Source of the DNA: a virus
Direction: 5' to 3' (one strand)
Length of the DNA stretch: 37,843 bases
Virus genome (UHGV): UHGV-1372824
In this document: positions 3,865 through 37,843 of the stretch, in pieces
How the letters are laid out: every line of letters begins with the position of its first letter
Position numbering within the stretch: the first letter of the stretch is position 1
Position numbers and translations under genes: made by a program
Notes under the pieces: generated by a model
Database searches by the model: none
What the model was told of the DNA's origin: nothing
The model's input: only the letters and a program-made list of their open reading frames with translations

Positions 3865-3875
3865 GGTAGGCAAGA

Positions 3876-4579: not shown

Positions 4580-4595
4580 TAAAATTGTAAAATTT

Positions 4596-4620
4596 TGTCG
4601 AATTTATGTCATTGATGACA
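4596..4620. promoter_or_regulatory. canonical Spo0A 0A box TGTCGAA followed by the 14-bp palindrome TGTCATTGATGACA
   Basis: Exact 7-mer at 4596..4602; palindrome at 4607..4620 directly upstream of the RBS of the 4632 gene. Confidence 0.35.
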
Positions 4621-4631
4621 AAGAGGTAATT

Positions 4632-6752: not shown

Positions 6753-6766
6753 GCTGAATCACTCCT

Positions 6767-6793
6767 AAAAATAAAGGCGGGACATGCCCGCCT
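6767..6793 (-). terminator. rho-independent terminator of the lipoprotein gene
   Basis: GGCGGG-ACATG-CCCGCC hairpin; on the minus strand it is followed by TTTATTTTT. Confidence 0.5.
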
Positions 6794-6798
6794 GTTTA

Positions 6799-7221
6799 TT
6801 ACATCGCTGAATCCATATAGGCATCAGTTATTTGACCGGCATACTCTTCATATACGTCGTAAAGTTTTCCTGCCCATTCTTCGTATACTTCTTGTTCGTC
6901 TCCGTTTTCTAACATAAGCTCTGCCATTTTTTCTGTGCCCTCTGTTTCGATTTTAGCGAGCTCCTCAATCTTGCTGTTTGACAGCTCCGCAAGTGCGTTT
7001 ATATCGCCTGACAGTTCAGCGGCTTCCTCGTTATATTCATCAATGAGCCCTGGTGTTGCTTCTTCAATCTTCTGGGTATATTCTTCAAGGATGCTTTCGT
7101 ATGTTGCCGGTTCCGTTGCCGGTTCTGAGGATTCTCCGGAATCTCCGCCTGATCCGCAAGCCGTAAACGCAAAAACCATAGCCATCATAACCAACACTGA
7201 TATAATCTTCTTCATTTTCAT
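6799..7221 (-). CDS. secreted acidic lipoprotein (moron / lysogenic-conversion or superinfection-exclusion candidate)
   Basis: Signal peptide MKMKKIISVLVMMAMVFAFTAC with lipobox FTAC; very E/D-rich mature protein; strong RBS AGGAGGGAA; sits between int and cI. Confidence 0.6.
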   Translation of the reverse strand: MKMKKIISVLVMMAMVFAFTACGSGGDSGESSEPATEPATYESILEEYTQKIEEATPGLIDEYNEEAAELSGDINALAELSNSKIEELAKIETEGTEKMAELMLENGDEQEVYEEWAGKLYDVYEEYAGQITDAYMDSAM

Positions 7222-7481
7222 TCCCTCCTAAAATACATAGATAACTTATTCACCGTGCGGAGAGGGTGGAGGGCGTTCGTGCTTTTTATGTCCCATATCG
7301 TTTTCCTTTATTGTCGTAAATCTTCCTGCATTTTCCGTTGTGTCTGAATATTACAGACTTGTATAATATTTTCAGAAAGATATTTCAGTTGTGAAAGGAT
7401 GAAGTGCAATGACTAAAAACGAATACTTAGAATCAATCAACGAGCTTCTTTCCCAGGTTGAGAAAGAGAGCACTCTTGAAT

Positions 7482-7871
7482 TCATTTTCGTTCTGCTGAG
7501 GAAAATAATTTAAGACTGTCAAGCATAGACTTGACAGCTAACAGCTTACCATTGTCCATCTTGTACAGAGTCAGAACTAACTCACTATACAGCTTATCAG
7601 TTTCCATTCTTATTAAGACGTCCGTAGTGGCGTCTATTTTTTTACTTGTTTCGGGCTTGTCTGATTCCCATCCCATAATATAAGCGGGAGTGGTATTTAG
7701 AGCATTAGCAATAGCAACGATTTTGCTTTGTGGCAATCCGCTTGCGTCTCTTTCAATCTTATTAATGGAAGACCTGGACTTATACCCGAGCTTTTTCGCA
7801 AGGTCGTCCTGCGACATTTTCAAGCATTCACGTCTTTCTTTTATTCTGTCACCAATTTTTCCGTTAGACAT
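7482..7871 (-). CDS. CI-like repressor (XRE-family HTH)
   Basis: HTH LKMSQDDLAKKLGYKSRSSINKIE; divergent from a Cro-like gene; GGAGGG RBS. Confidence 0.7.
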   Translation of the reverse strand: MSNGKIGDRIKERRECLKMSQDDLAKKLGYKSRSSINKIERDASGLPQSKIVAIANALNTTPAYIMGWESDKPETSKKIDATTDVLIRMETDKLYSELVLTLYKMDNGKLLAVKSMLDSLKLFSSAERK

Positions 7872-7895
7872 TTGTGTTTCCCTCCCGTCAACATG

Positions 7896-7924
7896 ATTAT
7901 AACCGCCTGTATAATTTTTTTCAA
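7896..7924 (-). promoter_or_regulatory. candidate repressor-maintenance promoter (TTGAAA-17-TATAAT on the minus strand)
   Basis: Read as the reverse complement of 7896..7924; the -35 overlaps an operator half-site TTCAAC. Confidence 0.4.
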
Positions 7925-7942
7925 CATTTTTTATAAATTATA

Positions 7943-7971
7943 TTGACATAATTACAAAGGGATGGTATTAT
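7943..7971 (+). promoter_or_regulatory. early rightward promoter (TTGACA-17 nt-TATTAT)
   Basis: Near-consensus hexamers with 17-nt spacing, immediately followed by operator palindrome. Confidence 0.55.
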
Positions 7972-7977
7972 TTCGAT

Positions 7978-7994
7978 GTTGAAAAAACTTCAAC
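7978..7994. promoter_or_regulatory. operator palindrome GTTGAA-N5-TTCAAC (O1)
   Basis: Perfect inverted repeat overlapping the predicted transcription start. Confidence 0.5.
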
Positions 7995-8010
7995 AAACAA
8001 CAACGAGAAA

Positions 8011-18306: not shown

Positions 18307-18429
18307 GTGGGATTCAATTACAAGCAGCAGTACGCAGTAGTGGTAATGTGCAAAGACGAATCAGAGCAGGAAGCTGTATATAACCGACTGAAAGCGGAGG
18401 GCTTCAAGCTCAAGGTGGTGGCTGTATGA
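18307..18429 (+). CDS. small protein (about 40 aa, GTG start), first gene of the ABC-GNAT cassette
   Basis: In-frame GTG after the terminator; its TGA stop overlaps the ATG of the next gene. The 18016 ORF in the track runs through two terminators, so only this 3' part is plausible. Confidence 0.3.
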   Translation: MGFNYKQQYAVVVMCKDESEQEAVYNRLKAEGFKLKVVAV

Positions 18430-19565
18430 TTGAGATTCACAATAGAGTAAGTGACTTTGACTCGTACAGAGCCGCAAGAGTGAAAAGCCTGTTCAATGCG
18501 GAGAGCGGATGTAACTTTGATTTAAGGATTGAAGGTGTGGACCTTTCCGGAGAATGGAGCATTGGTGTTGTTGTCGGTCCCTCCGGATCTGGAAAGACTT
18601 CAATCGGCAAGATGATATTTGGAGACAACAAGATTGCGAGCCTGTCAGATGGATGGCACACAGACAGACCTATCGTTGATGACATTGCACCAAGCAGAGA
18701 TTTCAACATCGTAACAGGGATGCTTGCATCGGTGGGGCTTGGTGATGTTCCGGCGTGGCTCCGTCCGTTTCATGTGCTATCAAACGGGGAGCAGTTCCGG
18801 GCGGGGCTTGCAAGACTTATATGCGAAGCTCCGGAGGAAGTTGTAATTGACGAATTCACATCAGTAGTTGACAGGCAGATTGCAAGAATAGGAGCGGGAG
18901 CGTTCCAGAAAGCGTGGCGGCGGGAGAACCCGACAGGCAGGGCCGTGCTGTTAACTCCGCACTATGATGTTGTGGACTGGTTACAGCCCGATTGGATTAT
19001 AGACACAAAGAACAAAACATTTGAACGGGGGAATCCCCGGCGCAGGCCACCGATTGAACTTGAAATACGGAAGGTCGACGGAAGTTACTGGCGATATTTT
19101 GAGCCGCATTATTATTTGAAACTGCCAAGACCTATTGCAGCAGAATATTTCATTGGAACAGTAGACGGAGAGCTTGCATGTCATATGGCTGTATGTCCGT
19201 GGTTCCATCTTAACGGATACCGGGCAACAAGACTTGTGACAATGCCGGAATGGCAGGGCGCAGGAGTAGGAACAAGGTTCCTTAATGCTGTGGCAGAGTA
19301 TCACCTTGAAGGGAACGGAAGAAGAAACAGAAAACTTCCGACATTCTTCCACACTTCGCATCCGCAGCTATGCGATGCACTGAGGAGAAGCCATAAATGG
19401 GTTCAAGTATCAGCGAAGCTATACGGAGACAATAAGACACGAAGCAATAAATCACTAACGAAATCAGCAAAGAAGAAAGGGTTCAAGGAAATTGGAAGCG
19501 GCTATGGCGGCCATTTCCGTGCCGTACAGGGCTTCAAATACATTGGAGAGGGTGTAATGCCTTGA
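18426..19565 (+). CDS. fusion protein: ABC-type ATPase domain (N-terminal) plus GNAT-like acetyltransferase domain (C-terminal)
   Basis: Walker A GPSGSGKTS; ABC signature LSNGEQFRAGLARL; Walker B EVVIDEFTSVVD; H-loop LLTPHYD; C-terminal RLVTMPEWQGAGVGTRFLNAV fits GNAT motif A. Confidence 0.6.
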   Translation: MIEIHNRVSDFDSYRAARVKSLFNAESGCNFDLRIEGVDLSGEWSIGVVVGPSGSGKTSIGKMIFGDNKIASLSDGWHTDRPIVDDIAPSRDFNIVTGMLASVGLGDVPAWLRPFHVLSNGEQFRAGLARLICEAPEEVVIDEFTSVVDRQIARIGAGAFQKAWRRENPTGRAVLLTPHYDVVDWLQPDWIIDTKNKTFERGNPRRRPPIELEIRKVDGSYWRYFEPHYYLKLPRPIAAEYFIGTVDGELACHMAVCPWFHLNGYRATRLVTMPEWQGAGVGTRFLNAVAEYHLEGNGRRNRKLPTFFHTSHPQLCDALRRSHKWVQVSAKLYGDNKTRSNKSLTKSAKKKGFKEIGSGYGGHFRAVQGFKYIGEGVMP

Positions 19566-21349: not shown

Positions 21350-22665
21350 TGTTCCGATTAGCAAGAGACACGGAAATGACGCTCACACTTCTGAGCGAGT
21401 TTCTGACAAAACACGCCCATGAAGTAAAGAACAGGTACGAGCCGCTATACAATGCGTACACAAGTGACCACGAGATTCTGCACGACCCGGCAAAGCCAAA
21501 ATATAAACCTGACAACAGAGTTGTGGTCAACTTCCCAAAGTACATCGTGGATACGATGAACGGATTCTTTATCGGAAACCCGATTAAGATTGTTGCGGAA
21601 GACGAAGCTGTCGCAGATTATGTTGAATATCTGGACAGATACAATGACCAGGACGACAACAACGCAGAGCTTGCTAAGATATGCAGCATATACGGCAAAG
21701 GTAACGAAATGTATTACACCGATGAGGAGTCGGAGCTTTGCATCACATATTTAGATCCTAAAGAGGCATTCATGATATACGACGAGTCTATCATAGAAAG
21801 GCCTCTTTTCTTTGTGCGCAGATATGTAGACAGAGAGGGCTTCGAGTATGGGAGCATATCGGACGAAACGTCGGTGCGGAACTTCAAGGTGACAGGCGGG
21901 CTGAGATGGCTCGATGAATGGACGCCACATTATTTCCCGGGTGTTCCTGCAACAGAGTACGTGGAGAACGGAGAACGTCAGGGCATATTTGAACCGGTAA
22001 TGTCGATGGTCAACGCCTACAACAAGGCGATATCGGAAAAGGCGAACGATGTTGACTATTTCGCAGATGCTTATCTGAAAGTGCTTGGCACAGCCATAGA
22101 CAAGGACGATGTGCAATTCATCCGTGACAACAGAATCGTAAACTTCGAGGGTGACGGCTCAGACAAAATAATCGCAGAGTTTATGGAGAAACCTAATAGC
22201 GATACAACACAGGAAAATCTGCTTGAAAGACTTGAACGGCTTATCTTCCAGATATCAATGGTGGCCAACATCTCTGATGAGAACTTCGGAACATCCTCCG
22301 GCATTGCAATGAAGTACAAGCTCCAGTCAATGTCAAACCTTGAGAAGACAAAAGAAAGAAAGTTCACTGCCGGAATGAACCGCAGATATCAGCTCCTGTT
22401 CGGGCATCCCGCTTCAAAGGTTACTGCTGATGCGTGGATTCAGCTCCAGTACAAGTTCACTCCTAACATTCCGGCAAACCTTCAGGAGGAAGCGCAGATT
22501 GCATCACAGCTTGATGGAATTGTGTCGCATGAAACACAGCTTAAGGTTGTTTCAGCCGTTGAGGATGTCAAGGGCGAACTGGACAAAATCGAGGAAGAAA
22601 ACAAGCCTGTTTTGACGCCTGTTGACAGGCAGATGTTCCCGGACGAGGAAAAGGACAATGTTTAA
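21349..22665 (+). CDS. portal protein
   Basis: 438 aa directly after TerL; translationally coupled. Confidence 0.75.
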   Translation: MFRLARDTEMTLTLLSEFLTKHAHEVKNRYEPLYNAYTSDHEILHDPAKPKYKPDNRVVVNFPKYIVDTMNGFFIGNPIKIVAEDEAVADYVEYLDRYNDQDDNNAELAKICSIYGKGNEMYYTDEESELCITYLDPKEAFMIYDESIIERPLFFVRRYVDREGFEYGSISDETSVRNFKVTGGLRWLDEWTPHYFPGVPATEYVENGERQGIFEPVMSMVNAYNKAISEKANDVDYFADAYLKVLGTAIDKDDVQFIRDNRIVNFEGDGSDKIIAEFMEKPNSDTTQENLLERLERLIFQISMVANISDENFGTSSGIAMKYKLQSMSNLEKTKERKFTAGMNRRYQLLFGHPASKVTADAWIQLQYKFTPNIPANLQEEAQIASQLDGIVSHETQLKVVSAVEDVKGELDKIEEENKPVLTPVDRQMFPDEEKDNV

Positions 22666-23740
22666 CTTGCAGCTATTTGCATCGGCTGACTACTGGCGAA
22701 AGCGAGAGGAGCAGAACCTAAAAAGCAACCTCAAACAGGAGGCCGAATACGACAAGGAAATTGAGCGCATATACAAGGATATGCTCGATGCCACGCAAAA
22801 GGAAATAGACGCCTTTTTAGGCAAGTATGCTGATGCGGAGGGCATAACCCTTGCCGAAGCTAAAAAAAGGGTCTCACAGCTCGATATAGAGGCTTATGAG
22901 CGCAAGGCAAAGAAGTATGTCGAAGCCGCTTCACAGGATAGAGCGAACACGGGCAAGACAAACAAGCGGGCGTTTTACTTCTCGAAGCGGGCGAATGAGG
23001 AGATGCGGCTTTATAACCTCACAATGAAAGTAAACCGCCTTGAAATGCTGAAAGCCAACATCGGGCTTGAACTTATCAAAGGCCACGCAGAGCTTGAAAC
23101 ATTTATGAGCGAGATCCTGCAAGGCAGGACGCAGGAAGAACTGGAAAGACAGGCGGGAATACTCGGAAAGAGCATCAAGAACAATGCGAAGCTGGCAGAT
23201 ACAATCGTCAATGCGTCGTTCAAGAACGCTACATTTTCGGACAGGCTTTGGATGTACCACGACCAGATGAAAGCGGACCTGTCGAAGCTCCTGCAAAGCG
23301 GAATGATTCAGGGCAAGAACTCAAGACAGCTCGCAAAGGACCTGAGAAAGTACTACTACGGCCCCGAATACCTAAAGAACGGCAAGAAGGGTGCCGTGTA
23401 CAACACAGAACGGCTGATGCGCACGGAGCTTGCGAGAGTGCAGACAGAGGCACAGCGGCAGAGCTTCGAGAGAAACGGCTTCACGGAGTACACATTCCTT
23501 GCCCTTGCTGACTGTTGCGAAATATGCGCTGAAATAAACGGAAAACACTTCAAGGTAAAGGATATGATGCCTGGTGAGAATGCTCCTCCGATGCACCCTC
23601 ATTGCCGGTGCAGTACATCAGCTTATGAGGACAGCAAGGAATATGAAGCGTGGCTTGATTATCTTGAGAGCGGCGGAACTACTGAGGACTGGAACAAGTT
23701 CGGCAAGGCGAATTGGAAAGGAGAACAACATGGCCTGTAA
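22658..23740 (+). CDS. minor head protein (Mu F / SPP1 gp7 family); N-terminal LQLFA motif
   Basis: C-terminal ...ENAPPMHPHCRCST motif of the Mu F family; N-terminus MFNLQLFAS. Confidence 0.8.
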   Translation: MFNLQLFASADYWRKREEQNLKSNLKQEAEYDKEIERIYKDMLDATQKEIDAFLGKYADAEGITLAEAKKRVSQLDIEAYERKAKKYVEAASQDRANTGKTNKRAFYFSKRANEEMRLYNLTMKVNRLEMLKANIGLELIKGHAELETFMSEILQGRTQEELERQAGILGKSIKNNAKLADTIVNASFKNATFSDRLWMYHDQMKADLSKLLQSGMIQGKNSRQLAKDLRKYYYGPEYLKNGKKGAVYNTERLMRTELARVQTEAQRQSFERNGFTEYTFLALADCCEICAEINGKHFKVKDMMPGENAPPMHPHCRCSTSAYEDSKEYEAWLDYLESGGTTEDWNKFGKANWKGEQHGL

Positions 23741-23764: not shown

Positions 23765-23884
23765 ATGAAAACAATGCAAGAATATTACGCATACAGAATC
23801 AGAACGGGGCAGATGACCATTGACAGTGTCCCCGAAAAATGGAGAGCAGAAGTTGAGAAGCTGTTGGGGATGACCGAAGAATGA
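23765..23884 (+). CDS. small protein (39 aa)
   Basis: RBS GAAAGGGAAAG; ATGA overlap with the Prp-like gene. Confidence 0.3.
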   Translation: MKTMQEYYAYRIRTGQMTIDSVPEKWRAEVEKLLGMTEE

Positions 23885-24183
23885 TAGAAATACGCCAAGA
23901 CGGCAACAGAATCACTGTCAGAGGTCACGCAGAATATGCGGAACACGGCAGAGATATAGTGTGTGCGGCCATATCGACCCTCTCGCAGGTGTTTGTGGCT
24001 TCTGTGGAGGAATTGACCGCCGCACAAATAAAAACCGCTCAAACAGGCGGATATATGGAAATCGTTATTGAAGAGTCAACGGAACGTGCGCAAGTTCTGC
24101 TTGATTCTTTTTTATTAGGCTGTCGGATGATATCCGACCAGTACCCGGACAATGTTCGGGTTTTTTTAATGTCCAAGCTATGA
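23881..24183 (+). CDS. Prp-family (DUF464, ribosomal-processing cysteine protease-like) protease
   Basis: ITVRGHAEYAEHGRDIVCAAISTLSQ matches the Prp His/Cys dyad region GHADHGEYGHDIVCAGASAV. Confidence 0.7.
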   Translation: MIEIRQDGNRITVRGHAEYAEHGRDIVCAAISTLSQVFVASVEELTAAQIKTAQTGGYMEIVIEESTERAQVLLDSFLLGCRMISDQYPDNVRVFLMSKL

Positions 24184-24274: not shown

Positions 24275-24892
24275 ATGAAGAAACACTTACTTGATTTACA
24301 GCTCTTTGCGGATGAGGGAGCTGACGGCTCGGAAACTCAGGAGCCTGCAAACCCAAACAAGGAGACCAAAGAGGCAGAGGAGAAAGAGAACGAGCCGAAG
24401 CCTGAGAAGAAATACTCGGACGATGATGTGGACAAGATTCTGAACAAGAAGTTCGCTGAATGGGAGAAGAAGAAGCAGAAAGAAGTTGACGAGGCAAAGA
24501 AACTGGCGGATATGAACGCAAAGGAAAAAGCCGAGTATGAACGAGACAAGCTGCAGAAAGAGCTTGATGCGCTCAGGGAAAAAGACTCCCTGTCAGAAAT
24601 GACAAAGACAGCCCGCAAGATGCTGTCAGACGAGGGTGTAAGTGTTTCTGATGATGTACTGAGCATGATTGTCTCTACAGATGCGGAAAAGACAAAGGCG
24701 GCAGTTGATGCCTTTGCAAAAGCATTCAACGAGGCAGTTGAAGCGGCAGTAAAAGAGAAGCTGAAGGGCAACCCGCCAAAGAAGGGAACCGGCGGCGGCG
24801 CTCCGATGACGAAAGAACAGATCCTTGCAATCAAGGACAACGAAGCACGTCAGAAGGCGATGCTCGAAAACAGAGAACTATTTAATTTTTAG
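24275..24892 (+). CDS. scaffolding protein with N-terminal DLQLFA motif
   Basis: E/K-rich coiled-coil; sits between the portal/Mu F genes and the capsid gene. Confidence 0.65.
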   Translation: MKKHLLDLQLFADEGADGSETQEPANPNKETKEAEEKENEPKPEKKYSDDDVDKILNKKFAEWEKKKQKEVDEAKKLADMNAKEKAEYERDKLQKELDALREKDSLSEMTKTARKMLSDEGVSVSDDVLSMIVSTDAEKTKAAVDAFAKAFNEAVEAAVKEKLKGNPPKKGTGGGAPMTKEQILAIKDNEARQKAMLENRELFNF

Positions 24893-24903: not shown

Positions 24904-25800
24904 ATGAAAAAGTTTGATTTACAGATGTTTGCAGTAGATGCAAAGACAGTTAAGGAGGCCGACCTTGCAAAGGTAAGAGACGTTGACTTCACAGAAAGAT
25001 TCTCAAAAGGAATCGACACTCTTATGGCTATGCTGGGTGTTACAAGGAAGCAGGAAAAGAGAGCCGGTGAAGTTCTCAAGGTATACAAGGCAACAGGAAC
25101 TCTTGAATCAGGAGTAGTGGCAGAAGGTGAAGTAATTCCGCTCTCCAAGTATCAGACAACATATGAGGCCATTGGCGAAGCCGTTCTGAATAAGTGGAGA
25201 AAGGTTACTACTGCTGAAGCCATCTCCTCAAAGGGATACGGACAGGCAGTCAACGACACAAACGACAAGATGCTCAAGGACATTCAGAAGGGTGTTAGAA
25301 CTTCATTTGTTAATTTCCTTGCAACAGGTACAGGCGAAGCTGCAGGAACAGGACTTCAGGCAACACTTGCACAGGCTTGGGGACAGCTCCAGGTACTCTT
25401 TGAAGATACATCTGTTCAGTCTGTTTACTTCATGAACCCTCTCGATGTTGCTGACTATCTCGGAGGTGCACAGATTTCAACTCAGACTGCATTCGGTATG
25501 AGCTACATTGAGAACTTCCTGGGACTCGGTACAGTAATCCTGGCATCAGATGTTCCAAAGGGCAAGCTTTATGCAACTGCCGCTGAAAACATCGTGCTGT
25601 ACTACATCCCTGTTACTTCAGCAGATATGGCACAGGCATTCGACCTGACATCAGATGCAACCGGACTTATCGGAATTCACACTGGCCCGACTTACGACAA
25701 CCTGTCAGCCGAAACAGTAGCCGCTTCAGGTGTTGGCCTGTTCGCAGAAAAGCTCGATGGTATCGTAGTAGGCACTATCAATCCGGCAACAGGAGCATAA
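24904..25800 (+). CDS. major capsid protein with N-terminal DLQMFA motif
   Basis: Position after scaffold, strong RBS, 298 aa. Confidence 0.7.
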   Translation: MKKFDLQMFAVDAKTVKEADLAKVRDVDFTERFSKGIDTLMAMLGVTRKQEKRAGEVLKVYKATGTLESGVVAEGEVIPLSKYQTTYEAIGEAVLNKWRKVTTAEAISSKGYGQAVNDTNDKMLKDIQKGVRTSFVNFLATGTGEAAGTGLQATLAQAWGQLQVLFEDTSVQSVYFMNPLDVADYLGGAQISTQTAFGMSYIENFLGLGTVILASDVPKGKLYATAAENIVLYYIPVTSADMAQAFDLTSDATGLIGIHTGPTYDNLSAETVAASGVGLFAEKLDGIVVGTINPATGA

Positions 25801-25812: not shown

Positions 25813-26016
25813 ATGGCTTACAAGGTAATTAAGCTGTTCACTGACCTGCACGACAACGATTATCTCTATAAAGTGGGGGATACATTCCCCCGCAAAGGGA
25901 TATCGGTTACAGAAGAGCGCATCGCTGAACTGTCAGGCAGTGACAATAAACAGCACACTCCACTCATTGAGAAGGTGAGCCGAAGAGGAATAAAGCTTCC
26001 GGTAAGTAGGAGGTGA
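25813..26016 (+). CDS. hypothetical head-associated protein
   Basis: 67 aa. Confidence 0.4.
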   Translation: MAYKVIKLFTDLHDNDYLYKVGDTFPRKGISVTEERIAELSGSDNKQHTPLIEKVSRRGIKLPVSRR

Positions 26017-27363: not shown

Positions 27364-27891
27364 ATGAAGAAACTTGATTTACAGATGTTTGCGAAACCGG
27401 TCAGCGGCAAGAAGATTGTATATCTGTTCAGGGTGTTAGATTCTGCCGCAACCGATGACGCTGTGGCAATGGCATTCACAACAGAGAACACAAACACAAT
27501 CTCAAAAGACGCTGATTCGACGGTAACAAAGGACGGCACAATCAGAACTCCGGGCGGAGCTGAAATCGAAATCACAGCAACAGCACTTCTCGCACAGGGT
27601 GATACGCTGTACGACAAGCTCAAGGCGGCAATGATTGCTGATAAGCTGGTTGAGGTCTGGGAGGCAAACCTTGAGGAGCCTGCCGATAGTGGCGAAAACA
27701 AGTTCAAGGGTATGTACTACCAGGGCTATCTGACAGAGTTCGAGAAGACTTCAAACGCAGAGGATTATGTTGAATGTTCAACCACTTTCGCAATCAATGG
27801 CACCGGCGCAAGCGGAGATGTTACTGTAACGGCTGCACAGCAGGAAGTAGCGGCTTATGTCTTCACTGACACACAGAAGACAGGCGCATAA
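27364..27891 (+). CDS. major tail protein with N-terminal DLQMFA motif
   Basis: 175 aa; followed by a terminator and the chaperone/TMP genes. Confidence 0.65.
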   Translation: MKKLDLQMFAKPVSGKKIVYLFRVLDSAATDDAVAMAFTTENTNTISKDADSTVTKDGTIRTPGGAEIEITATALLAQGDTLYDKLKAAMIADKLVEVWEANLEEPADSGENKFKGMYYQGYLTEFEKTSNAEDYVECSTTFAINGTGASGDVTVTAAQQEVAAYVFTDTQKTGA

Positions 27892-28657: not shown

Positions 28658-31546
28658 ATGTCAGATATGTCCGTAAGGGCGATATTATCAGCAGTTGACA
28701 GGGGTTTCTCCTCAACAATGAAGCAGGCGATGGGTATTGCCGGCAAACTTGACAAGAAAACAAGCAGCTTCATGACCGGAATACTGCAGGGCGCAGGACA
28801 GCAGGCTTTTTACATGTTGGCTGGCGGCTGCAGGGAGCTTGTATCGGAGATAGATGCATCGAATGTGGCTTGGAAGACTTTCGAGGGCAATATGCGAATC
28901 CTCGGCAAGAGCGATAAGCAGATAGGCAAGGTCAGAAAGTCTATGCAGAAATACGCAGAGCAGACCATCTACAGTTCATCCGATATGGCGTCCACATATT
29001 CACAGCTTGCGGCGGTTGGCGTCAAGTCAGCGGATAAACTGGTAACAGGCTTCGGCGGTCTTGCGGCTGCGGCCGAAAATCCACAGCAGGCAATGAAGAC
29101 ACTTTCACAGCAGGCTACACAGATGGCAGGAAGACCGAAAGTCGCTTGGCAGGACTTCAAGCTGATGCTTGAGCAGACTCCTGCGGGTATTGCGGCCGTA
29201 GCAAAAGAGATGGGAATGACCACCTCCGAGCTCGTAAGCAAAATCCAGGCTGGCGAGGTCAAGACAAAGGACTTCTTTAATGCGATTGAAAAGGTCGGCA
29301 ACAGTAAAGGCTTCACTAAGCTTGCGACATCGTACAAGTCTGCAGGGCAGGCTATGGACGGTCTGAAAGAGACCATCGGAAACAAGTTGACACCTGCATA
29401 TGATGCGCTGTCTAAGAAAGCTATAGGCGGAATCGAGGGCATTATTGACAAGGTCAGCGAGCTTGACGGCGAAGAAATCAAGGATAAGGTTCTGGCGGGA
29501 ATCGACAAGGCGATGCCATATTGGGAGCAGTTTAAGAATGTTCTTTCAGTAACAGGGACAGTGCTTAAAACTGTCGGAAAGTTCTTTATGAACCATTCGA
29601 ACATTCTCTCGAAGGGAATTCCGATAGTTCTCGGACTTGTTGCGGCGTACAAGGGCTTTAAGGTCGTCAATACAGTTGTCGGCGGCGTTAAGAGCTTCGT
29701 TGGAAGTATAACCTCGCTTGCCGGAGGAACAGGAAGCAAGGTTGCAGAAAATCTCAATAAAACGGCAACAGCACAGCAGAATGTCGGCAAGGTTAGCCAG
29801 GCATCATCAACACAGATGATGGCATCGGCAAAGGCATTTATGATGATGGGCGCAGGAGTGCTTCTGATTGCGGCGGGCTTCGGAATCCTCGCATATTCCG
29901 CTATTCAGTTAGCGAATGCAGGGCCTGCGGCAATAGCGGTAATGGCAGGAATGGTCGCCGCTCTTGTTGGAGTCAGCTTCGCTATGGCGGCGGTACTCAA
30001 GTTCCTTGCACCAATGTCGGCACAGCTTATGCCTGCGGCTACGGCGATGCTTGCTATGGGTGCGGCTGTCGTACTCGTTGCGGCAGGATTTGCGCTGATG
30101 TCTTATGCGGCTATACAGCTTGCTAACTCAGGCGGTCTTGCAATAGGAGTAATGGCCGGAATGGTAGTAGCTATGGCAGGGCTCATGGTTCTTGCGGCTG
30201 TCCTCGGTCCCGCTCTTACGGCAGGGGCTGTTGGCATGCTTGCATTCGGTGCGGCTGCACTTCTTGTAGGTGCGGGCGTTGCCCTTGCGTGTGTAGGTCT
30301 TGCACAGCTTGCAGGTGTTCTGCCTATCATTGTGGCATACGGAGTACAGGCGGCGGGTGCTATTGTGGCACTCGGAGCCGGTATGACCGTATTTGCGGCG
30401 GGTGCGCTTCTTGCGGGAGCGGCATCACTTGTACTTGGCGCAGGGCTTGTTGTAGCGGGGGCAGGAGCTCTTGTTGCGGCGGCTGGCGTAACTGCTCTTG
30501 GTGCAGGAGTATTGGTGCTCGGCGCAGGACTTCTTTTAACTGCGGCAGGAGCTACCATGCTTGCGGCGGCACTTCCGACAGTAGCGGCGGGCGCAATGAT
30601 GACTGGCGCATCCTTTACGATGCTTCTTGCAATGTCTGTGGCTCTTATGGCTGTAATGATTCCGCTCGGAGCTTCTATGACAGTATTAGGAGCAATGGCA
30701 CTTGTAGCAATGGCGGGCATCCTCGCATTCGGTGTGGCAATGACAACCGGTGCGGCGGGCACACTTGTAATGGCGGCGGCACTTAAAGCCGTGAACTCAA
30801 GTATGAAGAGTATTGCAAGCAGTGCCAACAGAGCGAAAAGCTCCCTCACATCAATGAGGGGTGCTGTGAAGACTGTTGAAAGCGGATTAAACGCCATTGG
30901 AAGCAAGGCGAAATCTGCAATGAGCAAGATGACAAGTGCATTCAGCGGAGCGGCAGGAAAGGCCAAGTCTGCGGGCAACCAGGTCGGTAAGGGGTTCTCA
31001 AACGGCGTAAAGTCTGGAATGAACACTGCCAAGTCTGCGGCATCCGCAGGAGTTAAGGCTGTAAACACAAAGCTCAAATCGGGAAGCGGTCAGGCTCGCA
31101 GTGCCGGTGCAATGATATCGAGAGGCTTTGCGGCGGGTATGCGGTCTTGCCTTGCGCAGATCAGGGCGGCGGCAAATGAAATGGTTAACGCCGCAAACAA
31201 AGCAATCCGGGCCAAGGCTAAAATCAAATCACCGTCGAGGGTAACTAAAGCATTAGGCGGATACTATGGCGAAGGTTACGAGCTTGGTATTCTCGATATG
31301 GTCAGAGATGCCAAGCGTGCGGCAGAAAAGCTCGTTTCTGTACCAACTGCATCCGTTCCGGCGCTTGCAATGGCATACGAGGGCGGTCTTTCATCTGAGT
31401 ATGACTATTACAGGCAGAACGAGTACAGAATTGAGGTACCGCTTACTATAGACGGCAGAGAGGTTGCCAGAACAACGGTTGACTACACTCAGGAGGAGCT
31501 CGACAAGAGAGAGAGACGAAATAACAGAAAGAAAGGAAAGGTTTAA
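28658..31546 (+). CDS. tape measure protein
   Basis: 962 aa; helical ends; roughly 300-residue A/G/L/V/M-rich tandem-repeat core. Confidence 0.85.
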   Translation: MSDMSVRAILSAVDRGFSSTMKQAMGIAGKLDKKTSSFMTGILQGAGQQAFYMLAGGCRELVSEIDASNVAWKTFEGNMRILGKSDKQIGKVRKSMQKYAEQTIYSSSDMASTYSQLAAVGVKSADKLVTGFGGLAAAAENPQQAMKTLSQQATQMAGRPKVAWQDFKLMLEQTPAGIAAVAKEMGMTTSELVSKIQAGEVKTKDFFNAIEKVGNSKGFTKLATSYKSAGQAMDGLKETIGNKLTPAYDALSKKAIGGIEGIIDKVSELDGEEIKDKVLAGIDKAMPYWEQFKNVLSVTGTVLKTVGKFFMNHSNILSKGIPIVLGLVAAYKGFKVVNTVVGGVKSFVGSITSLAGGTGSKVAENLNKTATAQQNVGKVSQASSTQMMASAKAFMMMGAGVLLIAAGFGILAYSAIQLANAGPAAIAVMAGMVAALVGVSFAMAAVLKFLAPMSAQLMPAATAMLAMGAAVVLVAAGFALMSYAAIQLANSGGLAIGVMAGMVVAMAGLMVLAAVLGPALTAGAVGMLAFGAAALLVGAGVALACVGLAQLAGVLPIIVAYGVQAAGAIVALGAGMTVFAAGALLAGAASLVLGAGLVVAGAGALVAAAGVTALGAGVLVLGAGLLLTAAGATMLAAALPTVAAGAMMTGASFTMLLAMSVALMAVMIPLGASMTVLGAMALVAMAGILAFGVAMTTGAAGTLVMAAALKAVNSSMKSIASSANRAKSSLTSMRGAVKTVESGLNAIGSKAKSAMSKMTSAFSGAAGKAKSAGNQVGKGFSNGVKSGMNTAKSAASAGVKAVNTKLKSGSGQARSAGAMISRGFAAGMRSCLAQIRAAANEMVNAANKAIRAKAKIKSPSRVTKALGGYYGEGYELGILDMVRDAKRAAEKLVSVPTASVPALAMAYEGGLSSEYDYYRQNEYRIEVPLTIDGREVARTTVDYTQEELDKRERRNNRKKGKV

Positions 31547-31555: not shown

Positions 31556-33208
31556 ATGTACATTTTCAGAGATGTTAATGAGGCTTTGGACGGCATAGCG
31601 CTGCCCTCCGAAGCCTTACAGATTAACGGCGAGTATATCGAGAACTTAATATCCGGATATACCACGCTTCACGTAAAAGGCAGAGAAGCCTTATCCCCGG
31701 AGCTTGAGACATTCGAGACAGGAGCGAGGGACGGAAGTACGCTGAAAAAACGGCGATTTCCCGCACGGACTATCACTGTTACCTATAAGTTGTCGGCGGA
31801 AAGCAATTCGGCGTTCAGAGAGGCGTATAACGCCCTTGCGGGGGTGCTTAATGTTGAAGACGCACAGCTTATTTTCAATGATGAGCAGGACAAATACTAT
31901 ACCGGCACACCATCGTCCATTGGAGAGGTTGAACCGGGCAGAAACAGTATTGTTAGCTCGTTCGATATCCTGTGTGTGGACCCGTTCAAGTATTCGCTGA
32001 CAGAGTACGAGGTGGCGCCAACAGTTGACGACGGTTTAGGCTTCGTTATCAACTACAACGGCACTTATAACTCATTTCCGGAGCTTGAGGCAGATTTTTA
32101 CCGTGAAGACGAGGCAAGCGACGACGGAGAAGTAACACTGAGCCTCACGGGTAACGGTGACTGCGGATATGTGGCTTTTTTCAATGACCAGGGCAAAATC
32201 GTTCAGCTTGGCGACCCGGAAGAAACCGACGGCGAATCACTCCCGAAATCGCAGACCCTTGTAAGCTCGGAGTTCAAGAAGACTTCCGCCTGGGGAACTG
32301 CGGCAAAGGCCATATGGAAAGTAAACAGCGGAGTTGTAACCAGTGGCACACAGACAGGAAGCCCCGGCATCGCAAAATCCGCTGATACTGAATACTACCT
32401 AACCGGCACGAGCTACGGCAGCGGTTCGTCCTGGCACGGTCCGTCTATTTCCCGGACACTTCCGGCAGATGCGGCAGGAGATGTGGGAGCAACAAACTTC
32501 ACAGTGACGGTTAAGCATAAAATGTGCATCGGTTCCGGAAAGAACGACGTCAAACAGAAAGGCGCTTTTCAGTGTCTGCTGACCGATTCAGATTCAAAGA
32601 TTGTTGCAGGATTCAACATATCCAAGAGTGCCAGCGGTAAAAAGGCAAATCTGCAATTCTATGTAAACGGCAAAACAAAGGACACTATATCCATAGACCT
32701 GTCCTACTACAACAAATACTTCGGCAGTAACAGAGCGGCAAACAAGAAGAAAAAAATCAAGGCTTTGAAAACCTGCAAGACCTCTACAATCACGAAGTCA
32801 GGCAACACAATAACCTTCAATGTCGGGGGCATTAAGAAGGTATACAGAGATGACGGCATAGCATCTACCGTATCAAAGAAATTAACTCTGACATTCTTTA
32901 GAGCCGGGACTTCTCCGGGGCTCAAGTACAACGGCATATACTGGGTAAAACTCGTCAAAGACAACTGCGACACATACCGTGACATCCCTAACAAATTCGG
33001 GGCAAACGACATTGTGATTGCAGATTGCAGAGAGGGTGAAATATACCTGAACAACACGAGGAGCCCTGAGCTTGGCGCACTGGGTAACGACTGGGAAGAG
33101 TTTTATCTGACTCCCGGAGTGAATCAGATCGGAGCGGCTTACTCCGATTGGGTGGCGGATGAATATGCTCCGACATTCAAGCTGAGGTATAGAGAGGTGT
33201 TCTTATGA
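31556..33208 (+). CDS. distal tail protein (Dit-like, extended)
   Basis: First gene after TMP, 550 aa. Confidence 0.55.
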   Translation: MYIFRDVNEALDGIALPSEALQINGEYIENLISGYTTLHVKGREALSPELETFETGARDGSTLKKRRFPARTITVTYKLSAESNSAFREAYNALAGVLNVEDAQLIFNDEQDKYYTGTPSSIGEVEPGRNSIVSSFDILCVDPFKYSLTEYEVAPTVDDGLGFVINYNGTYNSFPELEADFYREDEASDDGEVTLSLTGNGDCGYVAFFNDQGKIVQLGDPEETDGESLPKSQTLVSSEFKKTSAWGTAAKAIWKVNSGVVTSGTQTGSPGIAKSADTEYYLTGTSYGSGSSWHGPSISRTLPADAAGDVGATNFTVTVKHKMCIGSGKNDVKQKGAFQCLLTDSDSKIVAGFNISKSASGKKANLQFYVNGKTKDTISIDLSYYNKYFGSNRAANKKKKIKALKTCKTSTITKSGNTITFNVGGIKKVYRDDGIASTVSKKLTLTFFRAGTSPGLKYNGIYWVKLVKDNCDTYRDIPNKFGANDIVIADCREGEIYLNNTRSPELGALGNDWEEFYLTPGVNQIGAAYSDWVADEYAPTFKLRYREVFL

Positions 33209-34884
33209 TTCTATACTTTGCGAATAGAGTAATGAACATACTTGGTCAGGCGTCAACGAAACTGCCAGAGGGGTTCGTCATCCTTGAGGACAGCAAGGTT
33301 GAGGATGTTGATACAGGTGTAGCAACCTTTGAGTGTAGAATAGGCTTCAACAAGGCAAACAGGCTACAGCTTGAGGATATGACGGAATCCGGCAATTACA
33401 TTCTGCGGAGCCACGATAACGAGCAGGAATTCTATACCATCATCGACACGGAGATAGATACCAAGAATCAGGAAGTATATGTGTATGCAGAAGATGCGGG
33501 GCTCGACCTTCTTAATGAGGTTGTGGGCGAGTTTGCCGCAACGCAGTCCTATAATGCGGAATGGTACATAAACAAGTACACCAATGACAGCGGCTTTGAG
33601 ATAGGAATAAATGAAATCCCTTCAACCGCAACAAGAAAGCTGTCCTGGGACGGAGAAGCGACCTGCACGGAAAGGCTCGCAAGCGTGGCAACACAGTTCG
33701 GCGGCTATGAGATTTCATATTCCTTTGACATAAAGGGTATGGAGATTCAGCACAAGTATATCAACATATACAAGAAGCGGGGCAAGAGCCTTGACGAAGA
33801 GCTTCGGCTGAACCGTGACATCGACAGAATAATTACAAAGAAATCCGTTGCAAATCTCGCAACGGCTTTTTATTGTACCGGCGGCGTCCCAAAAGGCAAG
33901 GACAAGCCGATTACACTTAGCGGCTACAAGTACGACGACGGAGATTTCTATGTCAGCGGTGCTTATCTGCGCTCAAGGAAAGCCAACGCCAAGTGGAGCC
34001 GCTATATCTGGAACAAGGAGCCGAACAGGAAGAGCACGGATTATGGGTTCATAGTCAAGCCTTATTCGTATGAGACCACAAGTCAGCAGACCTTATGCTC
34101 CCACGCAATCACGGAATTAAAGAAAGTCTGCGATATGGAGGTCAATTACGAAGTCGACATCAATACCCTGCCCGACAATATAAAAATCGGAGACAGGGTG
34201 AACATTGTTGACGATGCGGGCGAGCTGTATTTATCCGCAAGGATACTCAAACTCGAGACATCCGTGGTAAAGGATTCATACAAGGCTACGCTTGGAGAAT
34301 ATCTGATAAAAGATAGCGGCATCTCACAGCAAGTTGAGGCACTGGCGACGCAGTTTGCGGAGCTTGCGGCAAACAGGACTTTTTATACCTGGATAGCATA
34401 CGCAGATGACGAAACCGGAACCGGAATCAGCCTTGACCCAACAGGCAAGGCGTACCTCGGCACGGCGGCTAATCAGGTAGTTGATGAGGTGAGCATAACA
34501 GACCCGACCATTTTCACGTGGTCGAAGATAAAAGGAGACCCTGGCACACAGGGTCCGCAAGGAGAGAATGGAACTGATGGAGAAGATGCAACTCTACTGC
34601 ATATAGATTCATCAGAGGGCACAGTATTTAAGGACAATTCTGCGACTACTGTGCTGACAGCGACGATATTTAGAGGAGCTAACCGGATAACCAGCGCCAC
34701 TACACTGGCGGCGGTATTCGGGAGCGGTGCCTATTTGCAGTGGAGGTTCAAAAAGGCAGGAGAGAGCAGTTATACAATCATATCTTCGGATGATTCGAGA
34801 CTGTCCAATGGGGGCTTCACATTGACCGTATCAATGGCCGATGTTGACACCTCTATTACCTATTCTGCCGAGTTAATCACTTAA
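33205..34884 (+). CDS. tail-associated protein (Tal-like) with collagen-like GDPGTQGPQGENGTDGEDA segment and Ig-like C-terminal domain
   Basis: Second gene after TMP; Gly-X-Y repeats. Confidence 0.5.
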   Translation: MILYFANRVMNILGQASTKLPEGFVILEDSKVEDVDTGVATFECRIGFNKANRLQLEDMTESGNYILRSHDNEQEFYTIIDTEIDTKNQEVYVYAEDAGLDLLNEVVGEFAATQSYNAEWYINKYTNDSGFEIGINEIPSTATRKLSWDGEATCTERLASVATQFGGYEISYSFDIKGMEIQHKYINIYKKRGKSLDEELRLNRDIDRIITKKSVANLATAFYCTGGVPKGKDKPITLSGYKYDDGDFYVSGAYLRSRKANAKWSRYIWNKEPNRKSTDYGFIVKPYSYETTSQQTLCSHAITELKKVCDMEVNYEVDINTLPDNIKIGDRVNIVDDAGELYLSARILKLETSVVKDSYKATLGEYLIKDSGISQQVEALATQFAELAANRTFYTWIAYADDETGTGISLDPTGKAYLGTAANQVVDEVSITDPTIFTWSKIKGDPGTQGPQGENGTDGEDATLLHIDSSEGTVFKDNSATTVLTATIFRGANRITSATTLAAVFGSGAYLQWRFKKAGESSYTIISSDDSRLSNGGFTLTVSMADVDTSITYSAELIT

Positions 34885-34897
34885 CAGGAGGAATCTT

Positions 34898-35587
34898 ATG
34901 GCAATTAAGGCAGTGGATCAGATAACCATCGTCGATGTGACCGACGCTTATTCGGTCATCTTAACAAGTGAAGCGTACACCTTTGTAGGGAATACATCGG
35001 GAGCTCCGTCGGGGCTCTCGTGCTCTACACAGGCAGTAGCGTTCTGCGGTTCAAATCAATGCTCCGTGGTGAATGTTACGGCATCGGACATTGAATGTCC
35101 GTCGGGTATTTCCGCAACAGTCACAAACAGCGGCACATCATCACCTACAATCACATTCAGGACCACGGCAACAATAACGGATGCCTGCGAGGCAACTATT
35201 CCTGTTGTGGTAGACGGAATCACGGTGAATAAGAAGTTCTCTTTTGCAGTAGCAAAGAAGGGAGCGACCGGGACGGCTGGCACCAACGGAACAAACGGCA
35301 CAAACGGAAAGGACGGAGCCGCCGGAGCTGATGCAATATCAATGGCAATATCAAGCTCAAACGGAACCGTATTCAAGAACAATTCCGGCTCGACAGTGTT
35401 AACAGCTCACGTATACAAGGGCGGTGTTGAGCAGTCAATCACGGATGCCGGAGTGTGCGGCACGCTTGGTAGCGTCAAATGGTACAAGGGAGGGGATGCC
35501 ACGGCAATAGCAACGGCAAAATCAGTAACAGTAAATGCGGCTGATGTTGCAAGCGCAGTAGCGTACACTTGTAAGCTGGAGCAGTAA
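34898..35587 (+). CDS. tail fibre component with collagen-like GATGTAGTNGTNGTNGKDGAAGADA and Ig-like domain
   Basis: Gly-X-Y run; domain paralogous to the C-terminus of the preceding gene. Confidence 0.5.
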   Translation: MAIKAVDQITIVDVTDAYSVILTSEAYTFVGNTSGAPSGLSCSTQAVAFCGSNQCSVVNVTASDIECPSGISATVTNSGTSSPTITFRTTATITDACEATIPVVVDGITVNKKFSFAVAKKGATGTAGTNGTNGTNGKDGAAGADAISMAISSSNGTVFKNNSGSTVLTAHVYKGGVEQSITDAGVCGTLGSVKWYKGGDATAIATAKSVTVNAADVASAVAYTCKLEQ

Positions 35588-37479
35588 TGACTGTAAGGGC
35601 AAGCGCCACGGTCACGGTCTCGAAATACCGGGATATAACATCGACCGTGCGGTACTACAAATTGCAGACCTCGACATTGTCCGCTCCCGCAAAGCCCACA
35701 ACAAACCCTCCGAGCGGGTGGAGCGATTCAGAGCCGGCATATTCGAGCGGCACATATACGTTATACTTCTGCGACCTCTCTGTTTTTTCGGATGGCACCT
35801 GGAGTTATTCGGCGGTCAGCAAGTCAAGCAGCTATGAAGCGGCAAAGGAAGCCTACAACAAGGCGGTTGAAGCGGCAAAGGTTGCAACAAACTTTATGCT
35901 TCTGACCGATGAGGACGGACTTGTCATCGGTAACATAACGGCGAATGTTCTCCGGGGCAACATACAACTAAAAGCAGAGACAAGCGGAGCATCAATATCA
36001 CTTCGAGACGGCACGAACATTCTCGCAAGGTTCTCGGCAACAAATAAGTCGTTCACCGGCATTACATCGGCTGTGACTTCAACCTCGAGTGATTCAAGCT
36101 CAGAACAGGGGGAGGCGGGAAGCTCAAGCGGAACAATTACAGGTGCATCGCAGACAGTCACAAGCGGGCAGTCAAAAGACATCGTGAAGATTGAGAGCCT
36201 TAACCCTGTTTACTTTCCGCAAGGAATTACAACAGACGGGGTTATTGTCAACGACGACAGCTTGATATCCAATGTGGATTTCACTCTGAACGGCAGAATC
36301 TTTGATAAGAACGGCAGATCTGCATTCGAACCGTACACAGGAGACGGGAACCTGTCAATCGGATATGGGCGTTTCAAGGCCGCCACGGCAAGCAGTACGG
36401 ACTGGAGCATTCTTTATGGGAATAAGGTCAAGCTCGCCACAAAAAACGGTGTATGGCTCACTCAGGACGGCTCAGTGGCATTTGAGACATACAATTCCAA
36501 CGGCAACATGTCGATGGGCTACCACCTTTACAAGAAGGGCACCGGAGACTTGAATCTGTACGGCGGGGCTGACATCAATCTGCGAGCCAAAACGACATCC
36601 ATTATAGACTCCACGGGAAGCTCCTGCTTCGAAGCTAAAAACGCTAACGGTAACACGGTTATCGGGTATGCCCGGTACTCCAAAGGCGGCAATACTAATA
36701 TTTATGGAGGAACCGAAATAAATTTAGTAACCAATAGCGGAAATGTTGTTGCTAATTGTTCGATAATACCAGAGACAAATTCGTCGATGGCATTAGGCAA
36801 GTACAACGAGCTCGGATGGTCGAACATCTATATCGGAAATGCCAGCGGGGTGTATAACGGGCTTCGTGTTATTGTAGACGGCTCAAGTAAGAACCTATGC
36901 GGTAGAGACGGAGACGGACACGTTATCTTCGGAAATATTGACGGTGTAATGCATTACCAGGCTAAGAATGTTAACGCCTCAAACACCGGTAATGCGTTCA
37001 GAATCACTTCCGGGAATAACGACGCAAAGAACAACACAACTTCTATATGGCTATTCGGTGCGGCTGACTCCACATCCCGATATATCGGCTCTTATATGGC
37101 ATACGACCGCACATATTCCTCTGCGGCAAATATGGTGGTTACTGGAAACGGAGTATTCGGGCGCAGTACATCATCATCTGAGCGATACAAAACCGATATA
37201 GAACTTGCCGACATCGGAGAGCTGAAAGGTCTTTACAGTCTGCCTGTCAAGCGGTTCAAGTATCGCAAAGACTACATTGCAGAGGATGACGAGCTGTACA
37301 ACACGGATATATACGGCTTTATCGTGGAAGACCTGGAGGAAGTGCTACCGTGTGCGGTACAGCATATAGAATCTGACGACGGCACGAAACTGCCCGAGAT
37401 GTGGAACAGTAACATCATCGTGCCGGCACTATTAAGTCTTATTCAAGACCTGAACAACAGAGTAAGCGTTCTTGAATGA
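35587..37479 (+). CDS. tail fibre / receptor-binding protein with C-terminal S74-type intramolecular chaperone (self-cleaving) domain
   Basis: Three tandem ~45-aa repeats (FE.Y..NGN.S.GY.RYKKG...N.YGG..INL); C-terminal SERYKTDIELADIGELKGLYSLPVKRFKY...IVPALLSLIQDLNNRVSVLE resembles endosialidase/L-shaped fibre chaperone domains. Confidence 0.6.
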   Translation: MTVRASATVTVSKYRDITSTVRYYKLQTSTLSAPAKPTTNPPSGWSDSEPAYSSGTYTLYFCDLSVFSDGTWSYSAVSKSSSYEAAKEAYNKAVEAAKVATNFMLLTDEDGLVIGNITANVLRGNIQLKAETSGASISLRDGTNILARFSATNKSFTGITSAVTSTSSDSSSEQGEAGSSSGTITGASQTVTSGQSKDIVKIESLNPVYFPQGITTDGVIVNDDSLISNVDFTLNGRIFDKNGRSAFEPYTGDGNLSIGYGRFKAATASSTDWSILYGNKVKLATKNGVWLTQDGSVAFETYNSNGNMSMGYHLYKKGTGDLNLYGGADINLRAKTTSIIDSTGSSCFEAKNANGNTVIGYARYSKGGNTNIYGGTEINLVTNSGNVVANCSIIPETNSSMALGKYNELGWSNIYIGNASGVYNGLRVIVDGSSKNLCGRDGDGHVIFGNIDGVMHYQAKNVNASNTGNAFRITSGNNDAKNNTTSIWLFGAADSTSRYIGSYMAYDRTYSSAANMVVTGNGVFGRSTSSSERYKTDIELADIGELKGLYSLPVKRFKYRKDYIAEDDELYNTDIYGFIVEDLEEVLPCAVQHIESDDGTKLPEMWNSNIIVPALLSLIQDLNNRVSVLE

Positions 37480-37500
37480 GCATGAGAAAGGAAACTGATA

Positions 37501-37843
37501 ATGACAATTAAAGCACAGGCATTGACTACCCTTGTAATTAACAAGGATGGCGAGGCAGGTCCGCAAGGCGAACCTGGAGCTGACGGCTATTCCCCGACAG
37601 TAACCACAGGCACATCATCAGACGGAAGCACTACGGTAACTGTTACAAACAAGGACGGTTCAACGACAACCGTACTTGTAGACGGAACAGCGAGAACTGG
37701 CGTTGATTCACTTAATGACACTGTATTCGGAGTACAGACTTTTGAGTATATCCTTGACGGTGTAACCATCCCTGCCCACAAAAGGGAAGACGGCACTTAT
37801 TACTACATCCTCAACGATGAGGAAGTTACGGTTGCAGAAGCTG
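37501..37843 (+). CDS. tail fibre protein, 5' part (open at window end), collagen-like GEAGPQGEPGADG
   Basis: ATG 37501; no stop before the window end. Confidence 0.5.
   Translation, partial: MTIKAQALTTLVINKDGEAGPQGEPGADGYSPTVTTGTSSDGSTTVTVTNKDGSTTTVLVDGTARTGVDSLNDTVFGVQTFEYILDGVTIPAHKREDGTYYYILNDEEVTVAEA

Follow-up and report, generated by a model that had tools for sequence, protein, structure and literature searches.

[quoted passage not shown] We consider it likely that the phage-made Prp clips these leaders off the Mu F-like minor head protein, the scaffold, the major capsid protein (MCP) and the tail tube protein, and so replaces a classical prohead protease. The whole stretch of DNA analysed, 37,843 nt, is referred to as the window. 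The first-pass annotation had read the gene as a Prp-type maturation protease, and this reading was supported in silico. We infer cleavage, the exact cut sites and catalytic activity from the sequence.

The prp product is a Prp-family protein

The gene and its immediate surroundings contain the following features:

23765–23884, plus strand: orf39, a 39-aa ORF of PHROG 1382 (unknown function); its stop codon overlaps the prp start (ATGA)
23881–24183 (stop codon included), plus strand: prp, predicted Prp (C108) cysteine protease of 100 aa (ORF call, PF04327, PHROG 4478, PDB, AlphaFold2 and Foldseek)
24143–24168, plus strand: terminator-like hairpin and T7 run inside the 3′ end of prp

The prp ORF runs from ATG to TGA and has 100 codons. 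A Pfam search matched its product to PF04327 (Peptidase_Prp) with an E value of 7.9e-23 and 80.9 bits, compared with a gathering cutoff of 27 bits; the match spanned profile positions 12–90 of 90. This profile match bore out the Prp/DUF464 identity proposed in the first-pass annotation, and the His/Cys dyad region GHA...EHG.DIVCAA.S could be read in the translated ORF exactly as quoted there. The product also matched PHROG 4478 'peptidase' (E 4e-23). PDB sequence matches included Prp of Streptococcus mutans (2G0I), Streptococcus pneumoniae (2IDL) and Staphylococcus aureus (4PEO/7KLD), with E values of 2.7e-11 to 3e-7; the solved host Prps are about 25–33% identical to the window Prp. The predicted pI of the window Prp was 4.88. 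Firmicute Prps that cleave L27 are likewise acidic (PMC9405229).

Homodimers are among the traits of the Prp family; the window Prp was modeled as a monomer using AlphaFold2, and the model had a mean pLDDT of 87.7 and a pTM of 0.81. Its β-strands (residues 2–7, 10–14, 49–55, 58–65 and 92–97) and α-helices (26–45 and 68–87) are arranged as ββαββαβ, the order that defines family C108. When the model was compared with the PDB using Foldseek, all 14 of the 14 significant matches were Prp structures. The best was S. aureus Prp (7KLD chain B, 7KLD_B), with a TM-score of 0.84.

The predicted catalytic residues fall within one segment:

23923–23976, plus strand: active-site segment G15-H16...D25-I-V-C28-A-A-I-S32 (alignment of 19 homologues)
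23926–23928, plus strand: codon of His16
23962–23964, plus strand: codon of Cys28
23974–23976, plus strand: codon of Ser32

The string in the window Prp is R-G15-H16-A-E-Y-A-E-H-G-R-D25-I-V-C28-A-A-I-S32. Nineteen diverse homologues with 50–93% identity were aligned, and G15, H16, A17, G23, D25, V27, C28, A29 and S32 were invariant in all of them (19/19). The His-to-Cys spacing was 12 in 87 of 88 loci. In S. aureus Prp, the dyad consists of His22 and Cys34, and the scissile bond is oriented by Ser38 (PMC9405229). The spacing of these three residues equals that of His16, Cys28 and Ser32 in the window Prp, where Ser is located four residues after Cys.

A genome contig scan with the window Prp gave a single distant match in a host genome, L088. 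It is a host operon (rng-rplU-prp-rpmA-obg) in a Bacillota MAG, and its Prp is 33% identical to the window's. The active-site loop of the window Prp, GHAEYAEHGRDIVCAA, was identical to the loop of this genuine host Prp.

Most prp homologues are 95 aa long and end with ...NVRVF. The window Prp has 100 aa because an extra T in the T run shifts the stop codon and adds LMSKL. The hairpin within the 3′ end of prp is ACCCGGACAATGTTCGGGT, followed by T7; judged from its sequence, it is a possible attenuator or mRNA stabiliser. The next gene starts 91 nt downstream and is preceded by a GGAGG ribosome-binding site. At the 5′ end, orf39 and prp are probably translationally coupled. In relatives, the orf39 slot holds other small ORFs (63, 51 and 94 aa).

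prp is located in the late operon between minor head and scaffold genes

The late genes are ordered as TerL (20105), SPP1-type portal (21349), Mu F-like protein (22658), orf39, prp, DUF4355 scaffold (24275), MCP (24904), connector proteins, major tail protein (27364), chaperones, tape measure protein and distal tail proteins. prp thus sits between the Mu F-like minor head gene and the scaffold gene. Host ribosomal prp (ysxB) is recognised by its location between rplU (L21) and rpmA (L27), and the window prp is not found between these genes.

We scanned 29 packaging, head, tail, lysis and adjacent late-region ORFs with Pfam and/or PHROG, and no S78/U35, ClpP/S14, S49 or T4-type (U9) protease was found among them. 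Ten early-region ORFs were scanned as well, and the sole other peptidase domain was the S24 autocleavage domain of a CI-like repressor. Two earlier claims about the context, that the head module has no S78, U35 or ClpP-type protease and that Prp stands where a maturation protease is expected, agreed with these results for the genes scanned and with the place of prp in the head operon, in the interval from Mu F-like gene to scaffold gene. The Mu F-like protein is also labelled PHROG 595 'head maturation protease'. This label was rejected as evidence of a protease; it is a family label for Mu F homologues, and no protease domain is present.

Its gene content suggests that the window is the complete genome of a temperate siphovirus, in permuted order. 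It encodes a tyrosine integrase, a CI-like S24 repressor, SSB, holin and endolysin. Two of these markers are located as follows:

4632–5312: CI-like S24 repressor
5580–6752, minus strand: integrase

The tail fibre genes run off the end of the window and resume at its start, followed by holin and endolysin genes. The regions considered for the permuted order were 1–8000 and 31556–37843. No exact terminal repeat was found in the window. We infer gut Bacillota/Clostridia as the phage host because of the metagenome sources and the similarity to Dorea phage DO134P1.

Other genes of the window had features of their own. A 67-aa ORF right after the MCP gene (25813–26016) matched PHROGs 3673 and 390 'Arc-like repressor'; the label looks doubtful because 38 of the 80 related loci have the ORF at this same place among the structural genes. 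A 379-aa protein of PHROG 11143 (unknown function), encoded at 18426–19565 directly before the packaging genes, combines the signature of an ABC-type ATPase with a C-terminus that resembles acetyltransferases. The tape measure protein (28658–31546) has a very long hydrophobic centre rich in Ala, Gly, Val and Leu (about residues 330–700).

Four virion proteins begin with L27-like leaders

The pattern LQxF[AGS] was searched in the six-frame translation of the whole window. Four matches were obtained. All were on the plus strand, all were at the N-termini of virion proteins and all read LQxF|A. As a control, residues were permuted within each called protein in 2000 trials; on average, 0.05 ORFs carried the motif within their first 25 residues, and the maximum was 2. 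The four genes and their leaders are as follows:

22658–23740, plus strand: Mu F-like minor head protein gene (PF04233, PHROG 115)
22658–22678, plus strand: Mu F-like leader MFNLQLF, 7 aa, predicted cut before Ala8 (ASADYW)
24275–24892, plus strand: scaffold gene, DUF4355 (PF14265, E 2.7e-35; PHROG 172)
24275–24307, plus strand: scaffold leader MKKHLLDLQLF, 11 aa, predicted cut before Ala12 (ADEG)
24904–25800, plus strand: MCP gene (PHROG 544, E 3.4e-55)
24904–24930, plus strand: MCP leader MKKFDLQMF, 9 aa, predicted cut before Ala10 (AVDA)
27364–27891, plus strand: major tail (tube) protein gene (PF06199, E 4e-17; PHROG 238)
27364–27390, plus strand: major tail leader MKKLDLQMF, 9 aa, predicted cut before Ala10 (AKPV)

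The first-pass annotation had placed an L27-like cleavage motif on structural proteins. The motif was found on four of them, and these are not head proteins alone: the major tail protein is also tagged. In S. aureus, the Prp site in L27 is MLKLNLQFF|ASKK, and phage 80α has ...NLQFF|ADQ in its scaffold and ...NLQHF|ASNN in its capsid protein (PMC5744158). The window motif is closest to clostridial-type L27 leaders, e.g. NLQLF|A (PMC9405229), and is also close to the L27 of the L088 host, MIKEMNLQLF|AQKK.

The longest ORF of the Mu F-like protein begins at TTG 22622. The start is likely ATG 22658 instead, and GAGGA is located 9 nt upstream of this ATG. Since there is no start codon downstream of the motif, the Mu F-like leader must be translated. 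A misassigned start was therefore rejected as the source of the leader; in addition, a ribosome-binding site precedes ATG 22658, and close relatives also have the leader.

Other LQ-type matches were considered. With a relaxed pattern, N-terminal matches in portal proteins ('LLQEFLDKH') were obtained and rejected as false positives. Tape measure proteins of many relatives (the L001–L040 set, e.g. L001 12392) have an internal KKELQxFAEQT[IV]Y at about residues 103–109. It was set aside as a further cleavage site; the window tape measure protein reads SMQKYAEQTIY there, and LQxFA is probably a conserved tape measure motif rather than a Prp site. In L027 (6154) and also in L046, the sequence ...SSLKLNLQLF|AKKAED occurs inside the ORF that precedes prp, at 71 residues from the C-terminal end. 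Either an internal site for Prp or fusion to a small protein could account for it.

The module is conserved in related phages

More than 150 homologues of the window Prp were present in the protein database. Those listed were all from metagenomes, and the closest listed was 93% identical; the exact window protein was present on a gut metagenome contig. In IMG/VR, at least 523 contigs, from 599 candidate stretches, encode a Prp relative.

Eighty IMG/VR loci were compared in detail. The first leader-bearing ORF was located at about +0.4 kb from prp (about 200 aa, scaffold), the second at about +1.0 kb (300–400 aa, MCP) and the third at about +3.5–3.8 kb (about 170–180 aa, major tail protein), so that the MCP and major tail leaders of the window are conserved in its relatives. 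In 61 of 77 loci, the start of a leader-bearing ORF was located 300–620 nt downstream of the prp start. Where at least 4.6 kb of downstream sequence was available (62 loci), 43 loci had three or more leader-bearing ORFs, 11 had two, 8 had one and 0 had none. Long metagenomic contigs of closer relatives showed the same synteny and contained no other protease family.

The module was also present in two cultured gut phages, Acutalibacter phage Fontainebleau (L089) and Dorea phage DO134P1 (L090, OP172779). The Fontainebleau record annotates prp as 'peptidase'. In DO134P1, the Prp ORF (5001–5282) has a TTG start and is unannotated in GenBank.

Three phages with a homologous scaffold and a negative Prp profile search (E up to 10) were used as controls. 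Javan87 had no leader. In PLE3 and phiEf11, the scaffold alone carried a leader, which was of the Bacilli type (LQFF|A).

Mu F leaders were found in close relatives of the window phage, MMRLNLQQF|ASADYW in L081 and MNNINLQLF|ASDTYW in L084. None of the 44 Mu F homologues in the IMG/VR loci had such a leader (they start MSSxEYW), and it was also absent from L086 (MSSKEYW). The Mu F leader is thus limited to the window's sub-lineage, in which its residues vary and NLQxF|A is kept. The comparison points to acquisition of the leader by the window phage and its nearest relatives in front of the same mature sequence, and the leader would behave as a movable tag.

Variant sites point to the phage enzyme

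P1′ is Ala in every L27 sequence tabulated (PMC9405229). The genomes L005, L021, L032, L054, L089 and L090 deviate from this L27-type F|A site. L005 has Tyr at P1 in 3/3 substrates (Tyr|Ala), and L054 has Gly at P1′ in 3/3 substrates. In the L021 group, the P1′ residues are Thr, Thr and Gly. In Fontainebleau, 3/3 substrates carry Asp at P1′, and the loop of its Prp is three residues longer. These patterns point to the phage enzyme, not the host enzyme, as the cutter, because some genomes shift all their sites in concert off the Ala of L27 and because the leader behaves as a movable tag, as in the Mu F gain.

In L039–L042, L050, L052 and L053, the scaffold carries LQLF|A, the MCP LQLH|A and the tail protein LQLC|A. 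His or Cys at P1 would be unusual for Prp; the sites may escape cleavage, or the enzyme may accept a wider range of residues.

A different assignment is that the host's own Prp cuts the virion proteins, as in 80α, and that the phage copy is auxiliary (for dosage, as a backup or where the host Prp is limiting or mismatched). We regard this as unlikely. The host enzyme, constrained by L27, is not expected to prefer the Asp, Gly or Thr at P1′ or the Tyr at P1 that several lineages show in concert, and the conservation of prp at one position across hundreds of phages speaks for a role that is not redundant. Some observations do fit the host enzyme. The four window sites are F|A, as in L27 leaders such as that of L088; they resemble clostridial-type leaders so closely that the host Prp might also cleave them, which might make the phage copy redundant. 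The phage active-site loop equals the L088 host loop. 80α-type phages have no Prp of their own (PMC5744158). Homologues of the window scaffold were found in 176 phage records, and only 8 phage records had a detectable Prp. Cutting by the host Prp and cutting by the phage Prp are not mutually exclusive.

In the opposite direction, cross-reaction of the phage Prp with host L27 is plausible because its loop is identical to that of the L088 host Prp, whose cognate L27 has the leader given above. From there, one may ask whether host L27, and with it ribosome assembly, is the main target and the virion leaders are incidental mimicry. The identical loop and the same preferred motif would suit this explanation, and S. 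pneumoniae TIGR4 has, on a horizontally acquired element, another protease that processes L27 (bioRxiv 10.64898/2026.08.10.744006), so mobile elements can affect the L27 pathway. The TIGR4 enzyme, however, is an unrelated Ntn hydrolase (bioRxiv 10.64898/2026.08.10.744006), and Prp is reported to be present already, as an essential protein, in Firmicute hosts (PMC9405229). Moreover, prp is embedded in the structural operon, where it would be expressed late with its putative substrates, and the three to four leader-bearing virion proteins per genome co-vary with each other, not with L27. L27 as the main target is very improbable.

Least probable of all, Prp could lack catalytic activity and serve as a chaperone or in assembly, binding the leaders but leaving them intact. 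For S. aureus Prp, a chaperone-like action on L27 was suggested (PMC9261936), and 80α needs its scaffold leader but can do without the cleavage (PMC5744158). Against this, His16, Cys28 and Ser32 are invariant in all homologues examined, which is hard to explain without catalysis.

Discussion

We propose the following course for processing by the phage Prp. Prp would be made from the late head operon together with its substrates, and its synthesis would probably be coupled to that of orf39. It would recognise leaders of the form Met-(Lys/Arg-rich)-x-(Asp/Asn)-Leu-Gln-(Leu/Met)-Phe, bind this short basic/hydrophobic stretch and cut after Phe. Cys28 would be the nucleophile and His16 the general base, and Ser32 would position the scissile bond. 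The Mu F-like protein, scaffold, MCP and major tail protein would lose 7, 11, 9 and 9 residues, respectively, and the four mature proteins would each begin with Ala. Prp would act as a leader peptidase for head and tail subunits, not as an encapsidated degradative protease.

The leader would more likely serve folding, assembly control or polymerisation timing than act as a maturation trigger, because the 80α scaffold leader is needed and its cleavage is dispensable. In 80α, the scaffold leader is required for assembly, and cleavage of the capsid protein (CP) and the scaffold (SP) is dispensable for viability (PMC5744158). By analogy, leader processing may not be essential in the window phage either.

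The closest known case is the host enzyme of S. aureus. S. aureus Prp (YsxB) belongs to the same family as the window Prp and has the same fold, the dyad with 12-residue spacing and Ser at Cys+4. It cleaves 80α CP (gp47) and SP (gp46) at F|A (PMC5744158). The sites in 80α and in S. aureus L27 are of the same type as those of the window (...NLQ-x-F|A) and lie, like them, at the extreme N-terminus. The window scaffold matches PF14265 (DUF4355), whose Pfam name comes from 'Capsid assembly scaffolding protein Gp46', and homologues of it were present in 103 Staphylococcus phage records. There are also differences. S. aureus prp is host-encoded between rplU and rpmA, whereas the window prp is phage-encoded in the head operon. 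Two proteins are tagged in 80α, whereas four are tagged in the window, including the tail tube and Mu F-like proteins, as read from the genes. The major tail protein of φ13 has been noted to carry an L27-like motif (PMC5744158).

Streptococcal phage Cp-1 provides a phage-encoded case. Its maturation protease is a 104-aa Cys protease placed with Prp in MEROPS clan CR, family C108 (PMC12445089; PMC9261936). It is reported to be essential for maturation and trims the N-terminus of the major head protein (PMC12445089; PMC9261936). A weak match of the window Prp to Cp-1 orf13 was obtained with hhalign (E 0.003, probability 10%), with GH...CA..ST in register. We take orf13, a hypothetical protein in the GenBank record, to be the maturation protease of Martín et al. 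1998. A Cp-1-like phage protein (SOCP) was also a fold match of the window Prp, with a TM-score of 0.74. These results are compatible with the same clan and not the same subfamily. The loop of Cp-1 orf13 is shorter than that of the window Prp (8 residues), and the Cp-1 protease cuts off 48 residues, at a site unlike that of L27, in contrast to the predicted window leaders of 7–11 residues. Cp-1 is a podovirus with protein-primed replication, unlike the window phage.

Classical prohead proteases, such as HK97 gp4 (U35-S78), ClpP-like S14 enzymes, λ C (S49) and T4 gp21, occupy the same slot, from portal/minor head genes to scaffold/MCP genes. Their general task, N-terminal trimming of head proteins, is the one proposed for the window Prp. 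Their folds and catalytic types are unrelated to it, and since a tail protein is also tagged in the window, the action of Prp would not be confined to the prohead interior. The tagged Mu F-like protein recalls the capsid-targeting sequences of T4, which are removed by gp21.

Database entries of the same family and gene position exist: PHROG 4478 'peptidase', UniProt 'YsxB-like protein [Siphoviridae sp.]' and the Fontainebleau 'peptidase'. These are automatic labels without a substrate or function, unlike the reading given here for the window. In the literature, which was searched in full text, a phage-encoded Prp with L27-like leaders on the phage's own virion proteins was not found, although an earlier mention is possible. 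Nor did the searched literature contain a biochemical or proteomic study of any phage-encoded Prp. Preprints of 2025–2026 mention the L27-like extension only in 'some staphylococcal bacteriophages' and present it as an intriguing peculiarity of that group (bioRxiv 10.64898/2026.08.10.744006).

The novelty is modest. The module is common among gut phages and predictable from homology, and 80α cleavage by host Prp, the Cp-1 protease and phage YsxB-like entries were already known. Two points go further: the tag is also carried by the tail tube and, within this lineage, by the Mu F-like protein, and other lineages shift the site specificity in concert. The phage Prp module does not overturn current understanding. 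So far, trimming of phage capsid and scaffold by Prp has been established only with a host enzyme, in phage 80α; our results suggest that many gut Firmicute phages carry their own Prp and tag three to four virion proteins with its site, including the tail tube.

A bolder reading, which we hold possible if doubtful, is that Prp and the leader form a portable, phage-private 'tag-and-clip' system with lineage-orthogonal pairs of enzyme and site, and that the phage Prp may also process host L27. If this is true, further virion proteins could receive the leader, which would serve as a transferable tag that licenses assembly; the recent gain on the Mu F-like protein and the leader of the tail tube would be instances of such grafting. 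The pairs with Asp, Gly or Thr at P1′ or Tyr at P1 would be independent of, or uncut by, the host Prp, which is constrained by L27. A phage Prp that processes host L27 would bypass inhibition or depletion of the host enzyme.

The module offers a tractable system for the function of the leader, with two cultured phages and an enzyme of 95–100 aa that is suited to expression in E. coli, a species lacking both Prp and the extension of L27. The lineage-specific site variants could yield small orthogonal site-specific proteases. Prp is also considered as an antibiotic target, and prophage-borne copies of Prp could give resistance or redundancy.
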